Assembly (NCBI GenBank): GCA_052034585.1
Contig: JBPOIJ010000034.1
Coordinates: forward strand, 19,797 to 83,796
Length of the DNA stretch: 64,000 nt
Origin: Myxococcota bacterium
Lineage (GTDB): Bacteria; Myxococcota; Myxococcia; Myxococcales; Myxococcaceae
Reading direction: 5' to 3'
Below, one piece after another: positions 25,695-62,674 of the stretch (positions within the stretch are counted from its first letter, which is position 1; every line of letters begins with the position of its first letter). The notes beneath the pieces were generated by a model. It searched no databases, was not told the origin of the DNA, and worked only from the letters and a program-made list of their open reading frames with translations. Position numbers and translations under genes: made by a program.

Positions 25695-26216
25695 GTGCGC
25701 GCGCACGAGGGCTACAGTGACGTCGTGACCTCTGCTGCTGGCGGCTTCCAAAGAAGCTGGTTGAGCATCGCGTTGATCGCGACCCCTGCCTGGGCGCACA
25801 TGGGCCCGGGCCTGGACACCGGAGACCTCGTCGTACTCGCCGTCATCGGCATCGGCATCGCGAGCCTCGTGCAGGGAGCGCTCACCTGGCTGGTCGCGAG
25901 GAACACCTTCAGCACGCCACGGCTCTTCCTCCGGTCGTGGGGCTTCTCCGCGTTGCTCGACATCGCGGCCGTCCTCGCGCTCGTGCTCACCGACGCGCTC
26001 GAGCTCGACGCACGCCTCTTCGGCAACCGCGGCCCGCCTGCGTTGGTGCTCGTGACGCCGGTGTTGATGGCAGTGTCATGGCTCGCGTGGCCGCTGCTCG
26101 CTCCAGCTTCGAGCGCTCGTTCACGGCTCTTCGGGAGCCAGCTCCTGGTGTTCACCACCCTCGGCACCTACGTGGTGGTGATGCTCCTCCTCGGCTTCAA
26201 CCCGTTCGCGTCCTGA
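25695..26216 (+). CDS. hypothetical polytopic membrane protein
   Basis: 173 aa with 4-5 hydrophobic segments. Begins 3 nt after the preceding gene. Start uncertain. Confidence 0.4.
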   Translation: MRAHEGYSDVVTSAAGGFQRSWLSIALIATPAWAHMGPGLDTGDLVVLAVIGIGIASLVQGALTWLVARNTFSTPRLFLRSWGFSALLDIAAVLALVLTDALELDARLFGNRGPPALVLVTPVLMAVSWLAWPLLAPASSARSRLFGSQLLVFTTLGTYVVVMLLLGFNPFAS

Positions 26217-26277
26217 CCGGCGCGACTCGGCTCGCCGCCTCTCGACGTGCGTCGCGACCCATGGCACGACCGACTCC

Positions 26278-28020
26278 ATGCAGCGCCTCTTCACTCCGAC
26301 TGAAACTGCCTTCTTCGCCGCGCTCGCCGTCATGGCGTGCACCGGCACCACGGCGCAGACGATGGAGCCACCCCCCACGCCCGACACCCCCATCGACATG
26401 CCCGGCATGCAGCCCGCCGTCGTCGTCGACAAGGCGACCGCACCCGACGCGGAAGACGGCACCGCCTTCGGAGGCCCGAGCGCGCCGCTGATGGAGGGCG
26501 TGCAGGTCGTCCCCAACCGCGACAGCGTCACCATCGTCGTGCCGGCGGTGATGGGCGCCGTCGACTACCGCGTCTTCCGACTCCCCGCGGGAGCGCGCGT
26601 CACCACCGACAACGGCGGCGAGAAGGTCACCGGAACGACCCTGCACTGCGCGGGCTACCGGCAGCACAACGACACGGCGACCGCCTCGCGCGAGCTGTTG
26701 CGCAACATCGACGTCACCGACGTCAGCGCGCCGATGGCCCTCGTCGTCGAAGCCATCGACACTCCCTGTCCCTTCCCCGGGCTCCTCGCGCCGGTGCACG
26801 CGAACCTGAAGATGGGCATCGACGAGGTGCCGGTCGCCGATCGGGTCGACTTCTCGTTCTTCACCGAGGCGGAGGTCGCCGCGAAGTACGGCAGCCTCGT
26901 GCGCAACGGCCACGGCAAGGGCTCCATCCTCGGCGGGCAGGGACCAGTCGCGTCGCCCAAGGTGCTCTCACGCACGACGGTGCGGGTCACTCCACAGGGC
27001 AAGGCGATGCCGCGCACGAAGGACTTCTTCGACGAGTTCGACGGCACCTCGGGGCCGTGGATGGCGATGGGCGCCGTCGATGATGGGAACCGCGCCCACA
27101 AGGACGGCCGGCGCTTCTCGAACCCCAAGTGGGACGTCTCCATCTACAACGACGAAGCCGAGGCGGCGGTGCTCGACGAGGTGCACGGGCTCTTGCGCGT
27201 CACCCTCCCCGACTGGATTCAAGACGTCTTCTCGTCGGTGGTGCTGGTGCCTCGCCGCGTCGCGCGGCTGTCGGACACCGACTATCTCCACCTCACCTTC
27301 GAGGTCGCCTCCAACGCCACCTCGCGGCGCTACTGGTGGGTCGGGGTGTGCGGCGCCTCGGAGGCGGGCAAGACGTTCGACGCCAACGGCCACTTCGCCG
27401 GCAAGCTCGTGCAGACGCCGTTCTTCTACCAAGACGACGGCTACAACCCCTCGCTCGAGAAGTGGAACTGCCTGCAGTTCTTCCCGCGTGACGGCTCGCC
27501 CTTCGACATCGCCGGCGCCTCGCGCTCCGAGTCCGACGTGCGGGTGATGCTGAACCGGCCCGACGCCGGAGAGCGCGACAGCGTGGTGAACCTCTCGCCC
27601 GCGCAGTACCCGGCGAGCAGCGCCAAGCCGAGCTGGTTCCGCATGCAGAACGCCACCGGCACCCTGGGCGCCGGCATTCTCGACGACCAGATGTTGATTG
27701 CCCCGCGCACCCGCTTCGACGCCTGGGTGCGGCGCGATCGCCTGGTGCTCTACGTCAACGGCCAGCAGCGGCTCTGCAACGACTTCGGCCCGCACCGGCT
27801 GACGATGGCCGAGGGCGCGGTGGCCTTCGGGCAGGTGCTCTATCACTCCGCCGCCGAGCGCCTCGAGTTCTCGCGCAGCTTCAACGACCGCACCGGCCAG
27901 CGCTTCTACCTGGAGAACGCGCCCTACGCGGACGAGCGCGAGTGGGACAACCTCGGCTACGAGGAAGGCGTCGGCGCTCCGGCTGGCTTCGACGCGAGCC
28001 AGTGCTACGTGGCGAAGTGA
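26278..28020 (+). CDS. secreted lipoprotein of unknown function (580 aa)
   Basis: Lipobox AVMAC and a Pro-rich linker. The stop overlaps the start of the downstream acetyltransferase (TGATG). Confidence 0.7.
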   Translation: MQRLFTPTETAFFAALAVMACTGTTAQTMEPPPTPDTPIDMPGMQPAVVVDKATAPDAEDGTAFGGPSAPLMEGVQVVPNRDSVTIVVPAVMGAVDYRVFRLPAGARVTTDNGGEKVTGTTLHCAGYRQHNDTATASRELLRNIDVTDVSAPMALVVEAIDTPCPFPGLLAPVHANLKMGIDEVPVADRVDFSFFTEAEVAAKYGSLVRNGHGKGSILGGQGPVASPKVLSRTTVRVTPQGKAMPRTKDFFDEFDGTSGPWMAMGAVDDGNRAHKDGRRFSNPKWDVSIYNDEAEAAVLDEVHGLLRVTLPDWIQDVFSSVVLVPRRVARLSDTDYLHLTFEVASNATSRRYWWVGVCGASEAGKTFDANGHFAGKLVQTPFFYQDDGYNPSLEKWNCLQFFPRDGSPFDIAGASRSESDVRVMLNRPDAGERDSVVNLSPAQYPASSAKPSWFRMQNATGTLGAGILDDQMLIAPRTRFDAWVRRDRLVLYVNGQQRLCNDFGPHRLTMAEGAVAFGQVLYHSAAERLEFSRSFNDRTGQRFYLENAPYADEREWDNLGYEEGVGAPAGFDASQCYVAK

Positions 28021-57279: not shown

Positions 57280-58536
57280 TCACCTCGGATCGACGACGCG
57301 CCCCGCGAAGAGAACGAGCCCCGTCTTCACGTCACGAATGAAGAACAGGAAGGGTCGATCGATGATCACCTCGGTCGACTGCGGCAGCGCCGTCGGAGCG
57401 AAGCCGAAGCTCGTGGCCGCAGCCGCTTCGGTGCCGTTCTCATCCAGAATGATGATCGCCTGGTGGACTGCGGCAGGCACGTAGAGCTCGGGCTTCCCCG
57501 TCATGCCGGAGAAGTCGGCTCTCGAAGCATCGAACGCGTCGGCCATGCCCAGCGCCTTCAGATCATCGACGAGCTCGAAGCTGTTCGCGAACTCGAACTT
57601 CGGCAGCCGCACGTCGTAGAGGTGAGGCTCCGCGCGCTTCACCAGGTCGTGCAGCTTCGCCGCGTCGAGCCCGCCGACGACGTCGGCGAACTTGCCGACC
57701 GGCGGCGCCAGCACCACCAGCGAGACGTCTTGTCCGTCGTAGAGGAGCTCGAGCACCTGGGTGCCGTCGACGAGCGCCGCCTTGGCACCCTTCAACTTCG
57801 AGTTGCGCATCATCGTCACTTCGGGCTTCGAGCCATCGAGCAGGGTGAAGGGGTACGGCTGGGTCGACGCCTTGTCGAAGACCTCGTCCCAGGCTGCGTT
57901 GAAGTACAGCGTGTTCACCACTGCGAGGCTCACGCCGGCGAGCGCGTTCGGCGCGAACAGCTGGCCGATCTTTCCCTCGGTGCGCTGGCTGACCCACTGG
58001 TTGATCGACACCCGTGCGGCATCTGTGGAGAAGTCGAGCAGACGCACGCCGGCCCCGTATTCCTGCGCCAACGTGTCGAGGTAGGGCTGCTCGAAGTGCT
58101 GACCCTTCTTGGCGAAGAGCTGGTTGGTCGCCACCAACCGAAACGGACGCCCGTCCTTCCCCTTCGCGTTGACGCCCCGCGACTCGATGGCGGCCTCGAG
58201 GGTGTTCATCGCCCGGTGGTGTTGCGCCTCGGGCAACGTCTGTTGGAGCGCCTTGATGATGCCGACGCGGGTGTTGCCACGCGCGCCGACCTCGACCATC
58301 GAAGTCGCCGTGGTGATGCTCGAAGGCGAGAAGAGGAAGTTGCCGTGAGGGTGCCTCGCGAGAAGCGAGAGCGCCAACGCGGTGTTCGCGGCGCTGGCGG
58401 CTTCGAGATCGACGTCGGGAGCCGCCTGGGTGATGCGCTCGGCCTTCGACGACACGTCTTCACCTGGTGGGGTGATGTCGCGTGGATCGGTACAGCCAAC
58501 CGTCACCAGCACCACCAACGGAGCGAACCGGATCAT
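57280..58536 (-). CDS. serpin-family protease inhibitor, lipoprotein
   Basis: 418 aa from MIRFAPLVVLVTVGC. NFLFSPSSI, NTLYFNAAW and an inhibitory-type hinge ENGTEAAAATS followed by IIDRPFLFFIRD. The track ORF of 820 aa is over-extended. Confidence 0.9.
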   Translation of the reverse strand: MIRFAPLVVLVTVGCTDPRDITPPGEDVSSKAERITQAAPDVDLEAASAANTALALSLLARHPHGNFLFSPSSITTATSMVEVGARGNTRVGIIKALQQTLPEAQHHRAMNTLEAAIESRGVNAKGKDGRPFRLVATNQLFAKKGQHFEQPYLDTLAQEYGAGVRLLDFSTDAARVSINQWVSQRTEGKIGQLFAPNALAGVSLAVVNTLYFNAAWDEVFDKASTQPYPFTLLDGSKPEVTMMRNSKLKGAKAALVDGTQVLELLYDGQDVSLVVLAPPVGKFADVVGGLDAAKLHDLVKRAEPHLYDVRLPKFEFANSFELVDDLKALGMADAFDASRADFSGMTGKPELYVPAAVHQAIIILDENGTEAAAATSFGFAPTALPQSTEVIIDRPFLFFIRDVKTGLVLFAGRVVDPR

Positions 58537-58755: not shown

Positions 58756-60153
58756 ATGAGAACGACCTTCTTGCTCGCCCTGCTGTCGTGCTCGTGCGGC
58801 CGAACGCCTGGCTTCGACGAACCGGTCATCACTCCGACCGACCCGTACGAGCCGACCAAGCTGCACCCGCCGGTCGACGCCCCGCCGCTGACGCGCAGCG
58901 CGAAGTGCTCGTCGACGAGACTCGCCCCTCCGCTGACGAGCTTCGCCTCGCAGCCTGCTCCCACCGGCCTCACTCGCGCAGACGTCGACCAGCTCTTCGC
59001 GGTCGACGGACCGACCGGGAGCGGCGTGCTCACCGCCGATCTCTGGGATGACGGAACGGTCTGGGCGCTCGTCGCCGCCGGCCCCAACTCGACGTTCGCC
59101 TCGGTGCCAGCCCCCGAAGGCGTCTCGGTCGTCGGGCTCTCCCCACGCGGGAAGGTGCTCGCGGCCTTCCCGACCACGGTGGGAGGCCGAATCGCTGCCA
59201 GCCCTCGCGGCGTGGTGCTCGTGGCGACCACCTTGAACGGAACGATGACGATTCAGGGCACGACGCTCACCAGCCGCGGGCGGAGCGACGTCGCCTACCT
59301 CGCGTTCGACTTCGACGGCTCCTTGCGGTGGACCCACGTCGTCGGAGACGAGGGCTTCGACGCGCCCAAGGTCGTCGAGACGAGCGCCGACGGGCACTTC
59401 CTCGTCGCGGCAGACGTGAGCTCCAGCCTCCTCACCGAGTCGCTCGATGCTCGCGATGGAACGGTGCGGTGGGCGAATCACGAGGTTCGCGCCGTTTCCA
59501 GCTCGCCGAACCACGGCCCGGCGATCGCCTTGGTGGAGGTCGCGGGAGGCGCAGCCGTCGTCGGCCGGTTCGACTCGTTTCGCCCTCCCGGCGCCGCTCC
59601 CGTCACGGCGGGTCTCCCTCAAGCGCCCTTCGTCGTCCTCTACGACTCGTCGGGAGCGGTCCGCTGGACTCGCACCGCCAAGGGGACCTGCCCCGGCTGG
59701 GGCTCGACGGGCGCGAACGGCGTCAGCCTCCAAGGCGAACACCTGCTGGTGAGCGGTTCGTTCTGCGACTCGATGGATCTCGATGGCGTGGTGGTTCGCG
59801 GTGACGGCGCGTTCCTCTGGGAGCTCGACCTCTCCTCGGGCCGCACGACCGGAGGCGTCGCGCTCGGTGGCACGGCCTGGGCGCAGTACGCCGTCGTCGA
59901 TGGTCGAGGAGGCCTCGCCCTCCTCTCGGGAAATTGGGGCGGCGTTTCGGCCTCACTCCTGCGTTGGTCGCCGGACGGAACCGCACGGCCGCCGCTCGCG
60001 CTGAAAGGGGCGCTCAACAACAGCAGCTTCACCAGCCTCGTGAGCAACGCGTGCGGAGACGTGCTCGTCGTGGTCGCCAGCCGGGAGCCAAGCTTCGTCC
60101 CGCGGCCCACCAGCTTCGGCACGTCGATCGCGCTCCAGTTCGAGGCTCAGTGA
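58756..60153 (+). CDS. secreted lipoprotein, beta-propeller-like, unknown function
   Basis: 465 aa from MRTTFLLALLSCSCG. Repeated DG..RW / SG.VRW strand-like motifs. The track ORF of 1189 aa is over-extended upstream. Confidence 0.7.
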   Translation: MRTTFLLALLSCSCGRTPGFDEPVITPTDPYEPTKLHPPVDAPPLTRSAKCSSTRLAPPLTSFASQPAPTGLTRADVDQLFAVDGPTGSGVLTADLWDDGTVWALVAAGPNSTFASVPAPEGVSVVGLSPRGKVLAAFPTTVGGRIAASPRGVVLVATTLNGTMTIQGTTLTSRGRSDVAYLAFDFDGSLRWTHVVGDEGFDAPKVVETSADGHFLVAADVSSSLLTESLDARDGTVRWANHEVRAVSSSPNHGPAIALVEVAGGAAVVGRFDSFRPPGAAPVTAGLPQAPFVVLYDSSGAVRWTRTAKGTCPGWGSTGANGVSLQGEHLLVSGSFCDSMDLDGVVVRGDGAFLWELDLSSGRTTGGVALGGTAWAQYAVVDGRGGLALLSGNWGGVSASLLRWSPDGTARPPLALKGALNNSSFTSLVSNACGDVLVVVASREPSFVPRPTSFGTSIALQFEAQ

Positions 60154-60428
60154 CACGCGTTCCCAGCGCCGTGCGGGTGACAGGCTCCCGAGCAGCACTC
60201 GGTGCCGGCGGTGCAGCCCTCACCGGTCGCCTTGCAGGCAGCACCACCGCCCGCGCCGCCAGCCGTTCCACCAGCGAGCCCACCACCAGCCGCTCCACCA
60301 CCAGCGAGTCCGCCACCAGCGACCCCACCCGCCGCGGCGCCGCCAGCCGCACCGGCGTCCATCGCTCCAGACGGCATCCCACACGCCCACGAGAGGCCGA
60401 GCAGCACCAGCAGCACGAGACGATTCAT
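60147..60428 (-). CDS. mini-lipoprotein: Gly/Ala tether plus six-Cys knottin-pattern module
   Basis: 93 aa from MNRLVLLVLLGLSWAC. C-terminus CKATGEGCTAGTECCSGACHPHGAGNACH gives C-x6-C-x5-CC-x3-C-x8-C. Its stop overlaps the convergent gene's stop (TCAGTGA). Confidence 0.6.
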   Translation of the reverse strand: MNRLVLLVLLGLSWACGMPSGAMDAGAAGGAAAGGVAGGGLAGGGAAGGGLAGGTAGGAGGGAACKATGEGCTAGTECCSGACHPHGAGNACH

Positions 60429-60529
60429 TGGCACTCCCTACCCGACGTCGGAGGCGAGGCCCCTGCGACCAATCGTCGCATCTGGTGGTCCGAACCCTGG
60501 CTCGAGGCAGCCGCGCGTGAACGGCCTCG

Positions 60530-61198
60530 TCAGTCGATGACGAGCTTGAAGCCCACGCCCCGCACCGTCTTCAGCTCGAAGCCGTCGGCCTTCAGCTTCT
60601 TCTTGAGCGAGGAGACGAAGTTGTCGACGGTGTGCACGTCCACCACCACGTCGCCCCACACCCGGTCGAGCAGCTCGTCGCGCGAGAGCACGCTGCCCTT
60701 CGCGGAGAGGAGACAGACCAAGAGGTCGAACTCCTTGCGGGTGAGCGGCACCTCGCCCTTGGGGCCCTTCACCACCCGAGTCGCTTCGTCGATGGCGTAC
60801 GGCCCGAGCTGATGAGGGGCCGCCGTCGAGACCACCGCCCGTCGAGAGAGCGCGCCGATGCGAGCGAGCAGCTCCTTGAGTCGATACGGCTTGCCCACGT
60901 AGTCGTCGGCGCCGGCGTCGAAGCCCTTCACCACGTCGTCTTCCAACGTTCGCGCGGTCAGCATCAGCACCCGCGTCGGCGCACCCGAGCGCTTCACCTC
61001 GCGGCAGAGCTGGGAGCCGTCTCCGTCGGGCAGCATCAGGTCGAGCACCAACACGTCGGGCGTCGACTCCTTCAGCGCGGCGCGGGCCTCGGCCAGGGTG
61101 GCAGCCGTGCGCACGAGGTAGCGCTCGTCCTCGAGGGTCTCGGCGAGGGCCTCCCGCAGGTTCCGATCGTCCTCCACCAAGAGCACCTGCGCGGTCAT
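60530..61198 (-). CDS. OmpR-family response regulator
   Basis: 222 aa. VLLVEDD, VLVLDLMLPDGDG and VGKPY receiver motifs. Winged-helix C-terminus (VRGVGFKL). Confidence 0.9.
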   Translation of the reverse strand: MTAQVLLVEDDRNLREALAETLEDERYLVRTAATLAEARAALKESTPDVLVLDLMLPDGDGSQLCREVKRSGAPTRVLMLTARTLEDDVVKGFDAGADDYVGKPYRLKELLARIGALSRRAVVSTAAPHQLGPYAIDEATRVVKGPKGEVPLTRKEFDLLVCLLSAKGSVLSRDELLDRVWGDVVVDVHTVDNFVSSLKKKLKADGFELKTVRGVGFKLVID

Positions 61199-61205
61199 TC
61201 GTTCC

Positions 61206-61976
61206 TCAGAAGACGTCGAACCACGCCAGCACGAGCACCACCGCGGCGCTCCCGTAGAGCAAGAGGTAGCCGTTCACCTTCTTCGACAACAAGAAGACCA
61301 CCAGCACGCCGAGCACCAGCGACGAGCCCTCGAGCACGGGCTCCATCCACCCTCGGCCCTGGAGCCCGAAGCGCGCCGAGAGCCACGCCGCCGAGCCACC
61401 CGCCGCGCCCGCCGCCAGCACCCGCAGCCGCTGGTTCCACACCGGCACCCGCCAGGCCTTGATGCGCGCGACCAGGCCATCTCCGAGCGCGAAGCCCAGC
61501 CAGAAGAGCCGGAAGCGGGCGATGAAGTGCACCAGGTTGTAGGCCACGACGTAGAAGAGCACCGCCCACGGGCCGAGCAGCGGCACCAGCGCCACCGAGA
61601 GCGCGCCCACCGCCGGCCGAAGCGAGAGCCAGAAGAAGCCGTCACCCAGCGCCGCGAGCGGGCCCATCAGGAGCGACTTGAAGCGGTCGACCGAATCGGG
61701 TTCGAGCTCGGCGCGCGCGATGCGCTGCTCGATGGCCAGCACCCCGCCCACGATGGCCGCCGCGACGTAGGGGTGGGTGTTGAACGGCGAGAGGTGACGG
61801 CTGAAGGCGGCTCGGCGCTGCGTCTCGTCGGGGTAGAGCCGCTCGAGGGCCGGCGCCAACGCATAGAGGAAGCCGAGCGCCTGCATGCTCTCGGTCGAGA
61901 ACCCGGCCTGGAGGAACAAGCTGCGCCACGAGCAGCGGAGCAACGTCCACGTCGAGAGGGTCGCCTCAGCGCTCAT
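61206..61976 (-). CDS. PTS mannose/sorbose-family EIID-like membrane component
   Basis: 256 aa from MSAEATLS. The FNTHPY motif is characteristic of EIID-Man. ATGA overlap with the EIIC-like gene. Confidence 0.8.
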   Translation of the reverse strand: MSAEATLSTWTLLRCSWRSLFLQAGFSTESMQALGFLYALAPALERLYPDETQRRAAFSRHLSPFNTHPYVAAAIVGGVLAIEQRIARAELEPDSVDRFKSLLMGPLAALGDGFFWLSLRPAVGALSVALVPLLGPWAVLFYVVAYNLVHFIARFRLFWLGFALGDGLVARIKAWRVPVWNQRLRVLAAGAAGGSAAWLSARFGLQGRGWMEPVLEGSSLVLGVLVVFLLSKKVNGYLLLYGSAAVVLVLAWFDVF

Positions 61977-62674
61977 CGCGCCCTCAGGGTGAAGAAGGCG
62001 ACGATGGCGGCCACCACCACGGCGACGGCCGCAGCGACCCCCGGACGACCCTGGCCTCGGGCGAAGATGGCGAGGCCGGCAGCCACCATGCCGAGCACTG
62101 GATAGGCGAGCGCCAGCCCTCGCATCGACGCCAACGGCAGCTCCCCGACGACGAGGTGGAGGACGAGCGCCACCGGAACCGCGACCGCCGAGGCCAAGCC
62201 GTAGAAGACGAAGTGCGGCCACATCGCCTTCACGTTCTGCCACGCGATGCCCTCGATGCCGCCCGACGAGACCGCGCTCAACGCACGCCCGAAGTAGCGC
62301 CTGGCGCGCGAGTCGAGGCGCAGCTCCACCAGCCGGCCGACGATGCCTGCCGGTGCACAGAGGAGAATCGTCAGCGACCAGAGCGCAGGTGTCGACGGCG
62401 CGCCCATCGTGTGTCCGAGCGCGGTGGCGAGGGCGGTCGCGGTCACCGCAGGGAGCGTCTCGTGATCGGGGTGCGCGCCGCCGAGCGACGCCCCGCTGAG
62501 GTGGAAGAGCTCGAAGACGAGGCCGACCATCAGCCCTGCCTCGACGTCACCCAACATCACCGAGAGCCCCACCGCTGCCGGGAGTGGCCGGCTCACCGCC
62601 GCTTGAAGAAAGGCCCTCCGCTCGAGCGCGAGGAGCCCGCCCCACAGCCCGGTGATGAGCGCCGCAGCCAACAC
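61973..62674 (-). CDS. PTS mannose/sorbose-family EIIC-like membrane component
   Basis: 233 aa with GTG start. Polytopic, with FELFHL... and general EIIC-Man-like organisation. Immediately upstream of the EIID-like gene. Confidence 0.7.
   Translation of the reverse strand: MLAAALITGLWGGLLALERRAFLQAAVSRPLPAAVGLSVMLGDVEAGLMVGLVFELFHLSGASLGGAHPDHETLPAVTATALATALGHTMGAPSTPALWSLTILLCAPAGIVGRLVELRLDSRARRYFGRALSAVSSGGIEGIAWQNVKAMWPHFVFYGLASAVAVPVALVLHLVVGELPLASMRGLALAYPVLGMVAAGLAIFARGQGRPGVAAAVAVVVAAIVAFFTLRAR

Follow-up and report, generated by a model that had tools for sequence, protein, structure and literature searches.

Knottins are valued as ultra-stable scaffolds and, to our knowledge, come almost entirely from animals, plants and fungi. 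The venom peptides of the inhibitor cystine knot (ICK) type, such as omega-atracotoxin-Hv1a and the omega-conotoxins SO3 and MVIIA (PDB 1hvw, 1axh, 1fyg and 1tt3), share a C-C-CC-C-C framework within about 25–30 residues. Here, we examine a 64,000-nucleotide (nt) stretch of a Myxococcota genome of the Myxococcaceae (contig JBPOIJ010000034.1, positions 19,797–83,796; hereafter the window, with positions counted from its first letter). At 60147..60428 of its minus strand, a 93-codon gene encodes a mini-protein. This bacterial knottin-like protein has a single module on a tether, bears a set of His residues and gives access to an undescribed family.

Small disulfide-rich modules have some precedent in bacteria. 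Secreted cysteine-rich repeat proteins (SCREPs) string small disulfide-rich domains together in tandem and are said to occur also in bacteria, where their domains are mostly unrecognised; the accessible text of the two SCREP papers mentions neither Myxococcota nor bacterial ICK arrays (PMC6262176, PMC9885460). The KNOTTIN database includes bacterial knottins only as theoretical models, and the accessible portion of its paper gives them no family, organism or lipoprotein context (PMC5753296). Full-text literature searches gave no description of such knottin-like modules from myxobacteria, and in PMC6406012 knottin appears only in the reference list.

An automatically assigned conotoxin label is already in circulation for some myxobacterial proteins. 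In an ESM Atlas cluster of 55 members, with Myxococcota as the commonest phylum, PF17557 ('I2-superfamily conotoxins domain-containing protein') stands on 56% of members; the ESM Atlas matches all scored below 0.9 (best 0.87), and we take them as leads only. The label is a by-product of the common Cys framework with no curated bacterial family behind it, and the mini-protein has no PF17557 match.

Unlike the venom ICK peptides, the mini-protein is bacterial, lacks a venom-type propeptide and is fused to a signal peptide with a candidate lipobox and to a Gly/Ala tether. Its last loop is longer (x8) with a His triad, and it has no basic surface. Plant SOTI-III (PDB 4aor, 4aoq), the best structural match and tied with the toxin knottins, is a free soluble peptide, whereas the mini-protein is tethered. 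Arrays of paralogous modules in the same genome match the SCREP architecture as given in the accessible text of those papers, whereas the mini-protein has a single module. The gene and its parts are as follows.

60147..60428, minus strand: mini-protein gene of 93 codons, closed by a stop at 60147-60149 (open reading frame list, translation, homologues in genomes G003, G012 and G009, and selection on the frame).
60434..60439, minus strand: Shine-Dalgarno-like AGGGAG, separated from the ATG by 5 nt, read from the sequence and overlapping a GTG.
60381..60428, minus strand: signal peptide, residues 1-15, and Cys16 (codon 60381-60383), presumed lipidated (helix at residues 2-16 in the full-length model; Cys16-Gly17 invariant).
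60237..60380, minus strand: Gly/Ala-rich tether, residues 17-64, 48 residues (low model confidence; indels).
60150..60236, minus strand: knottin-like module, residues 65-93, C-x6-C-x5-CC-x3-C-x8-C-H (confident AlphaFold2 model, fold matches, leave-out family search).
60150..60179, minus strand: His triad, H84 (60177-60179), H86 (60171-60173) and the C-terminal H93 (60150-60152), invariant in four of four homologues.

The ATG at 60426-60428 opens a protein of 93 residues, whose C-terminal end reads CKATGEGCTAGTECCSGACHPHGAGNACH, followed by the stop. An alternative GTG at 60432-60434 would give 95 codons. The ATG is the likelier start, because AGGGAG overlaps the GTG and the homologues likewise begin with MN(L/V)RR. 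On re-reading, the open reading frame (ORF) and the Cys spacing C-x6-C-x5-CC-x3-C-x8-C reported in the sequence-only reading match exactly, and so does the 7-nt overlap with the convergent gene, whose plus-strand stop lies at 60151-60153 across from the mini-gene stop at 60147-60149.

The frame behaves as a coding one. Across the 34 C-terminal codons, the G003 and G012 homologues differ at 4 first, 4 second and 16 third codon positions, a clear third-position bias. The ratio of nonsynonymous to synonymous change (pN/pS) is 0.15–0.48 in the mini-gene frame, and the three opposite-strand frames yield 1.1–3.3 or contain in-frame stops. The sequence-only reading had left room for a Pro-rich plus-strand ORF as the real gene; this ORF is a shadow because purifying selection acts on the minus-strand frame.

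Under the alternative view, the mini-gene arose by chance as an ORF of GC-rich DNA and the plus-strand ORF at 60202-60540 is the real gene; this view could draw on base composition. The genome has 68% GC, and the GC content at third codon positions (GC3) of the mini-gene is only 0.67–0.68 overall. By part, GC3 is 0.82 in the signal peptide, 0.53 in the tether and 0.83 in the module, with 0.81–0.86 in seven paralogous array genes. The low average thus arises because the GGT/GCT-rich tether alone pulls it down.

The chance alternative can also point to the lack of the protein in predicted-protein collections and of any promoter-like site in a scan. However, the plus-strand ORF has no family match and is itself missing from the protein collection, and its homologous frames show the relaxed ratios or stops given above. 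Moreover, the module scores in a family hidden Markov model (HMM) built with the mini-protein left out and takes a confident predicted fold, both described below. We regard the chance ORF as barely credible.

The mini-protein, its three homologues with several starts tried and the shadow ORFs were not found as exact sequences in a 15-billion-protein collection. The same collection does contain the response regulator encoded next to the mini-gene and, for two of the three homologues, the adjacent DUF3592 protein. With neighbours present in the proteomes and the mini-protein absent, the gene seems missed by gene callers. A word-indexed protein search with the 93-residue protein gave no match at E ≤1e-3, itself included. 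In NCBIfam, neither the mini-protein nor the shadow ORF has a family; of nine paralogues, seven have none and two match only unrelated repeats. The mini-gene is a real protein-coding gene, apparently missed by public gene callers.

RNA-derived contigs hint at transcription of the mini-gene. One metatranscriptome contig of 160 nt, X20, equals 60237-60396 within the gene with zero mismatches. Three others from RNA libraries run from the start-codon region into the 3′ end of the response regulator gene (X18, 60427-60598; X17, 60448-60599; X19, 60481-60631). Contigs from four metatranscriptome runs cover the region in part, with 60150-60236 and 60397-60426 uncovered in most. Short RNA pieces of 18–35 nt with mismatches were assigned to conserved genes of other organisms and set aside.

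Near-identical copies of window positions 59600-61300 (79–100% of sampled words) occur in 16 metagenome runs from activated sludge, wastewater and bioreactors. After removal of five runs flagged as possible sources and one more from the same studies, ten runs from seven studies are left.

Full-length homologues exist in three of 12 other genomes of the genus (G003, G012 and G009), at 47–54% identity; some of the congeneric genomes without one are only 85–89% complete. Invariant in all homologues are Cys16-Gly17, the six module Cys, K66, G69, H84, H86 and H93. The worry that the Cys spacing might not hold among homologues is settled by these three, which keep all six Cys and their spacing.

Beyond the genus, the scans returned no mini-protein. 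Strong matches of a profile from the C-terminal parts of the four homologues (59–70 bits) are found only in this genome (G000) and in G003, G009 and G012, and a scan of one genome per species (185,579 species) returned only the three known homologue loci. The same profile run with HMMER against 1.84 billion representative proteins matched 35 at E ≤1e-3, among which no single-module orthologue was found, the inspected matches all being multi-module or other Cys-repeat proteins. A metagenome scan gave no additional mini-protein, with the module seen only at protease ends.

The N-terminal signal peptide would export the product. A lipobox at the end of a signal peptide has the consensus [LVI]-[ASTVI]-[GAS]-C. 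The hydrophobic N-terminus of the window copy ends in L-S-W-A-C16, and the homologues have L-V-A-C, F-L-A-C and L-A-A-C, canonical in two of the three. Cys16-Gly17 is invariant, and the lipobox called in the sequence-only reading needs a correction for the window copy, where LSWAC is atypical. As judged from these residues, the mini-protein is probably lipidated at Cys16, which would make it a membrane-anchored lipoprotein.

The tether is predicted to be disordered. In the full-length AlphaFold2 model from the four homologues, the predicted local distance difference test score (pLDDT) is under 50 at residues 17-56 and 58-61. The homologous proteins vary between 81 and 103 residues, and the length-changing indels fall mostly within the tether. 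Such a tether, disordered and some 48 Gly/Ala-rich residues long, would hold the single 29-residue ICK-like module at the extreme C-terminus.

The module is modelled as a knottin. The sequence-only reading had called the six-Cys framework knottin- or conotoxin-like, with MVIIA as its comparison, and had named structure prediction as a check. AlphaFold2 with an 86-row module alignment gives a mean pLDDT of 86.4 and a C-terminal hairpin at model residues 24-27 and 30-33, and the module reaches a pLDDT of about 90 in the full-length model. The call is corroborated by this predicted fold, by the knottin structural neighbours and by the profile matches, MVIIA included.

The structural neighbours came from two independent methods. 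VIA-align, independent of Foldseek, compared the model with 48,161 chains and gave 27 with Z ≥2, nearly all of them knottin-type mini-proteins; its Z values are low in absolute terms (≤4.1) and rows within 1 count as tied. The top match is SOTI-III (Z 4.1, root-mean-square deviation (rmsd) 1.0 Å over 29 residues, 41% identity), followed by spider and sea-anemone peptides at Z 3.7–4.0. Superposition on knottins gives rmsd of 1.0–1.4 Å across 29–30 residues. Foldseek has no match at E ≤1e-3, as expected for 34 residues, and 15 of its 16 rows are knottins (TM-score 0.70–0.73 to omega-atracotoxin, SOTI-III and Aps III), the other one being a colipase.

The sequence profile leads to the same peptides. 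The module profile has 63 matches at E ≤1 among PDB sequences, the best with omega-atracotoxin-Hv1a (5.1e-5), omega-conotoxin SO3 (1.1e-4) and MVIIA (1.4e-4). These alignments share, besides the Cys, the loop 1 Gly and CC-[ST]-G-x-C, features that recur in the venom ICK peptides as a group (profile E 5e-5 to 2e-4; Foldseek TM-score 0.70 to 1axh). The Pfam toxin models stay below their gathering scores: Toxin_18 (PF08087) at 15.4 vs 24.3, E 0.019; Toxin_29 (PF08116) at 14.0 vs 25, E 0.05; and Conotoxin (PF02950) at 9.8 vs 25.1, with no Conotoxin_I2 (PF17557) hit. Two array paralogues of the same genome pass PF17557 (36.4 and 29.2 vs 27) through summed repeats. Together, an ICK-like module is supported. 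Knottins pair their Cys as I-IV, II-V and III-VI, the third bond threading the ring; for the module this connectivity is a prediction, backed indirectly by the superposition on knottins.

The Cys pattern alone proves little, because a loose Cys regular expression run over the six-frame translation of the 9.56-Mb genome yields 247 hits, 18 of them Arg-rich junk frames. The exact 6-5-0-3-8 spacing occurs once in that translation. Most of the non-junk hits are genuine Cys-repeat proteins, and they include array lipoproteins that combine a lipobox with a GGTSGG-type linker and 8–15 tandem modules of consensus C-x3-G-x2-C-x5-CC-x-G-x1-2-C-x2-G-x-C. The paralogues in this genome are the following.

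Contigs C16, C36, C118, C126, C165 (two) and C166: tandem-array lipoproteins.
Contigs C142 (TolB-like propeller), C135 and C166 (acidic double-disulfide repeats) and C53: larger secreted proteins ending in one or two modules.

The link between the mini-protein and this family was seen with an HMM of 82 paralogous modules, from which the mini-protein and its homologues were excluded. Against 135,000 six-frame ORFs, the mini-ORF ranks 10 (E 3.4e-4, 23.4 bits), with ranks 1–8 being training proteins. The only other non-training ORF belongs to a lipoprotein on contig C93 (E 5.4e-5). By sequence, then, the mini-protein is the smallest, one-module member of a large Myxococcota module family. With an 86-module profile at E ≤1e-4, this family is found in 125 of 301 sampled Myxococcota genomes (a count that takes in G102, a genome flagged unpublished) and in 63 of 137 genera; among 301 genomes of the class, the four-homologue profile matched modules weakly in 94.

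Several related proteins were observed along the way. The C93 lipoprotein (25715-27364, minus strand) has a GGTSGG/AGG linker of more than 150 residues and then divergent knottin-like modules with extra Cys. In metagenomes, proteases of two types, papain-like cysteine and subtilisin-like, end in one module (L058:1501-1566, L059:498-563 and L060:1501-1566), which reads CCSGQCHP... or CCSGACHD... after acidic Cys/Asp repeats.

The three invariant His residues set the mini-protein group apart. His at Cys5+1, Cys5+3 and Cys6+1 is found in four of four homologues vs 1, 0 and 0 of the 82 paralogous modules, only three of which have any His at all. The register of the model would put all three on a single face of the hairpin. 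The classical zinc site in the beta-sheet of carbonic anhydrase II combines H-x-H with a cross-strand His. An H-[DE]-H(-D-H) motif just past the lipid anchor is present as well in three of four homologues.

Among the functional options, metal binding is favoured because the His triad is specific to the mini-protein group. The triad, made up of H-x-H on the opening strand of the C-terminal hairpin and of the His after Cys6, would bind a divalent metal (Zn, Cu or Ni). The tethered knob would then buffer metal or act as a metal chaperone, at the cell surface or within the envelope. We put this metal-binding knob forward tentatively, as a prediction from the residues.

A tethered module for binding or adhesion may instead have no metal role, with a polysaccharide, matrix component or partner protein as its target and its His as contact or pH-sensing residues; the arrays and the enzyme-terminal modules of the family presumably bind in this way. 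The company that the module keeps suits this, as it ends secreted enzymes and beta-propeller proteins (C142, C135 and C166 here; the metagenome proteases of L058 and L060) and builds arrays of a length usual in surface or stalk proteins. However, the mini-protein module lacks the aromatic residue usual in small carbohydrate-binding knots, its His triad is group-specific rather than common to the arrays, and no conserved partner gene adjoins it. Such binding or adhesion is a possible function, only slightly less probable than the metal role.

The structural neighbours raise another option, a membrane-tethered knottin protease inhibitor that would shield the envelope from own or foreign secreted proteases. 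SOTI-III, a spinach trypsin inhibitor, is the top structural neighbour and has a sequence-profile E of 1.1e-3; Lys66, right after Cys1, is invariant; and a gene for a lipoprotein serpin lies 1.6 kb away. Yet spider and cone-snail toxins tie with SOTI-III (Z within 1), and the match therefore reflects the fold rather than the inhibitor family. K or R following Cys1 is family-wide (25 of 82 paralogous modules), the homologue loci do not share the serpin gene and no reactive-site loop was identified in the module. An inhibitor is thus unlikely.

Myxobacteria are predators that ship lipoproteins on vesicles, and a toxin-like or antimicrobial knottin might reach prey or competitors via outer-membrane vesicles or outer-membrane exchange. 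The profile similarity to omega-atracotoxin and the omega-conotoxins and the weak matches to Toxin_18 and Toxin_29 would fit, but the Pfam scores are under gathering (15.4 vs 24.3) and no immunity or partner gene is adjacent. The family mainly takes the form of long arrays and of appendages to enzymes, neither of them toxin-like. The module, rich in Gly, Ala, Ser and Thr and carrying a single Lys, thus does not have a basic surface like that of channel blockers. We consider this role very unlikely.

Several points weigh against the explanation as an exported, tethered knottin-like protein with a metal role. As to the gene, a scan of 59900-61400 found no promoter-like site, and the RNA contigs are unstranded with possible DNA carry-over, X18 moreover diverging from the window at the start codon (beyond 60427). 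The mini-protein turned up in no more than four species, all of one uncultured genus, and without synteny, since the window copy follows a response regulator gene and the other three follow a DUF3592 gene. As to the anchor, LSWAC has Trp at −2, and S-W-A also fits signal peptidase I.

As to the fold and function, AlphaFold may be biased to the knot, having seen many knottins, and the Cys invariance in the module alignment A3 is partly circular, its modules having been selected by the Cys regular expression. The N-terminal H-[DE]-H motif is missing from the window copy, and no metal-related gene is near the mini-gene. With these points weighed, the identity as an exported tethered mini-protein with one knottin-like module is held with high confidence. 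For the best explanation overall, our confidence is roughly 0.7; for its metal-binding part it is well below even odds.

The genes around the mini-gene are as follows.

58756..60153, plus strand: convergent lipoprotein gene, 465 residues, N-terminus MRTTFLLALLSCSC; only a sub-threshold beta-propeller-like (PQQ_2) match.
60530..61198, minus strand: OmpR/PhoB-family response regulator gene, 101 nt upstream of the mini-gene (Pfam Response_reg and Trans_reg_C).
61206-62674, minus strand: phosphotransferase system (PTS) genes of the mannose/fructose/sorbose family, IID (E 2e-43) and IIC (E 7e-11), directly upstream of the response regulator gene.
57280-58536, minus strand: lipoprotein-type serpin gene, 418 residues, N-terminus ...LVTVGC (Pfam Serpin, E 6e-88).

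The serpin gene is divergent from the convergent lipoprotein gene. No histidine kinase gene is adjacent to the response regulator gene, an orphan. The response regulator was considered as a clue to a metal system and rejected, its NCBIfam hits being generic OmpR/PhoB ones all under the equivalog cut-offs. The only terminator-like site in the 59900-61400 scan, at 61297-61323, lies inside another gene.

Synteny was likewise rejected as a clue to function, as the window copy and the other three occupy different neighbourhoods. The DUF3592 orthologue of this genome, on contig C78, has no adjoining mini-gene. The neighbours therefore offer no functional clue, because the loci are not syntenic. Beside homologues, L024:549-1490 and L025:562-1488 (plus strand) encode a secreted protein of about 310 residues with YRQQQQQ(D/E)(L/M) repeats; these repeat proteins have no Pfam match, and their exact sequences were not found in the protein collection.

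Other Cys repeats are abundant in the genome. Many of the 247 hits of the regular expression belong to a second family, C-x-[AST]-x-x-C-[PSA]-x-G-CC-x4-5-C-x7-9-C. A third type, C-x-S-G-x-C-x-D-G-V-CC-x3-C-x3-C, occurs in proteins of more than 2,300 residues on C12 and C112. Examples of the second family are the following.

Contigs C142 (984-residue frame, 10 copies), C54, C108 and C132 (67208-67455), own genome: second Cys-repeat family.

The mini-gene illustrates how gene callers miss small genes with GGT/GCT-rich linkers in GC-rich genomes. A bolder proposal, that the myxobacterial modules are true homologues of the venom ICK peptides by descent or horizontal transfer and that the mini-lipoprotein is also a His-triad 'metallo-knottin', is in our estimate distinctly unlikely. 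If true, bacteria would be a large ancient reservoir of the omega-conotoxin/atracotoxin-type knot and the mini-lipoprotein would be a new functional class.

In summary, the mini-protein leads into a large bacterial knottin-like family, spread over 125 of the 301 sampled Myxococcota genomes, with up to 15 modules per protein in this genome and venom-like at the sequence-profile level. Its 29-residue module is a minimal form that can be synthesised. It could give the first bacterial knottin structure, a metal test and a way into the question of ancestry between the venom and bacterial knots.

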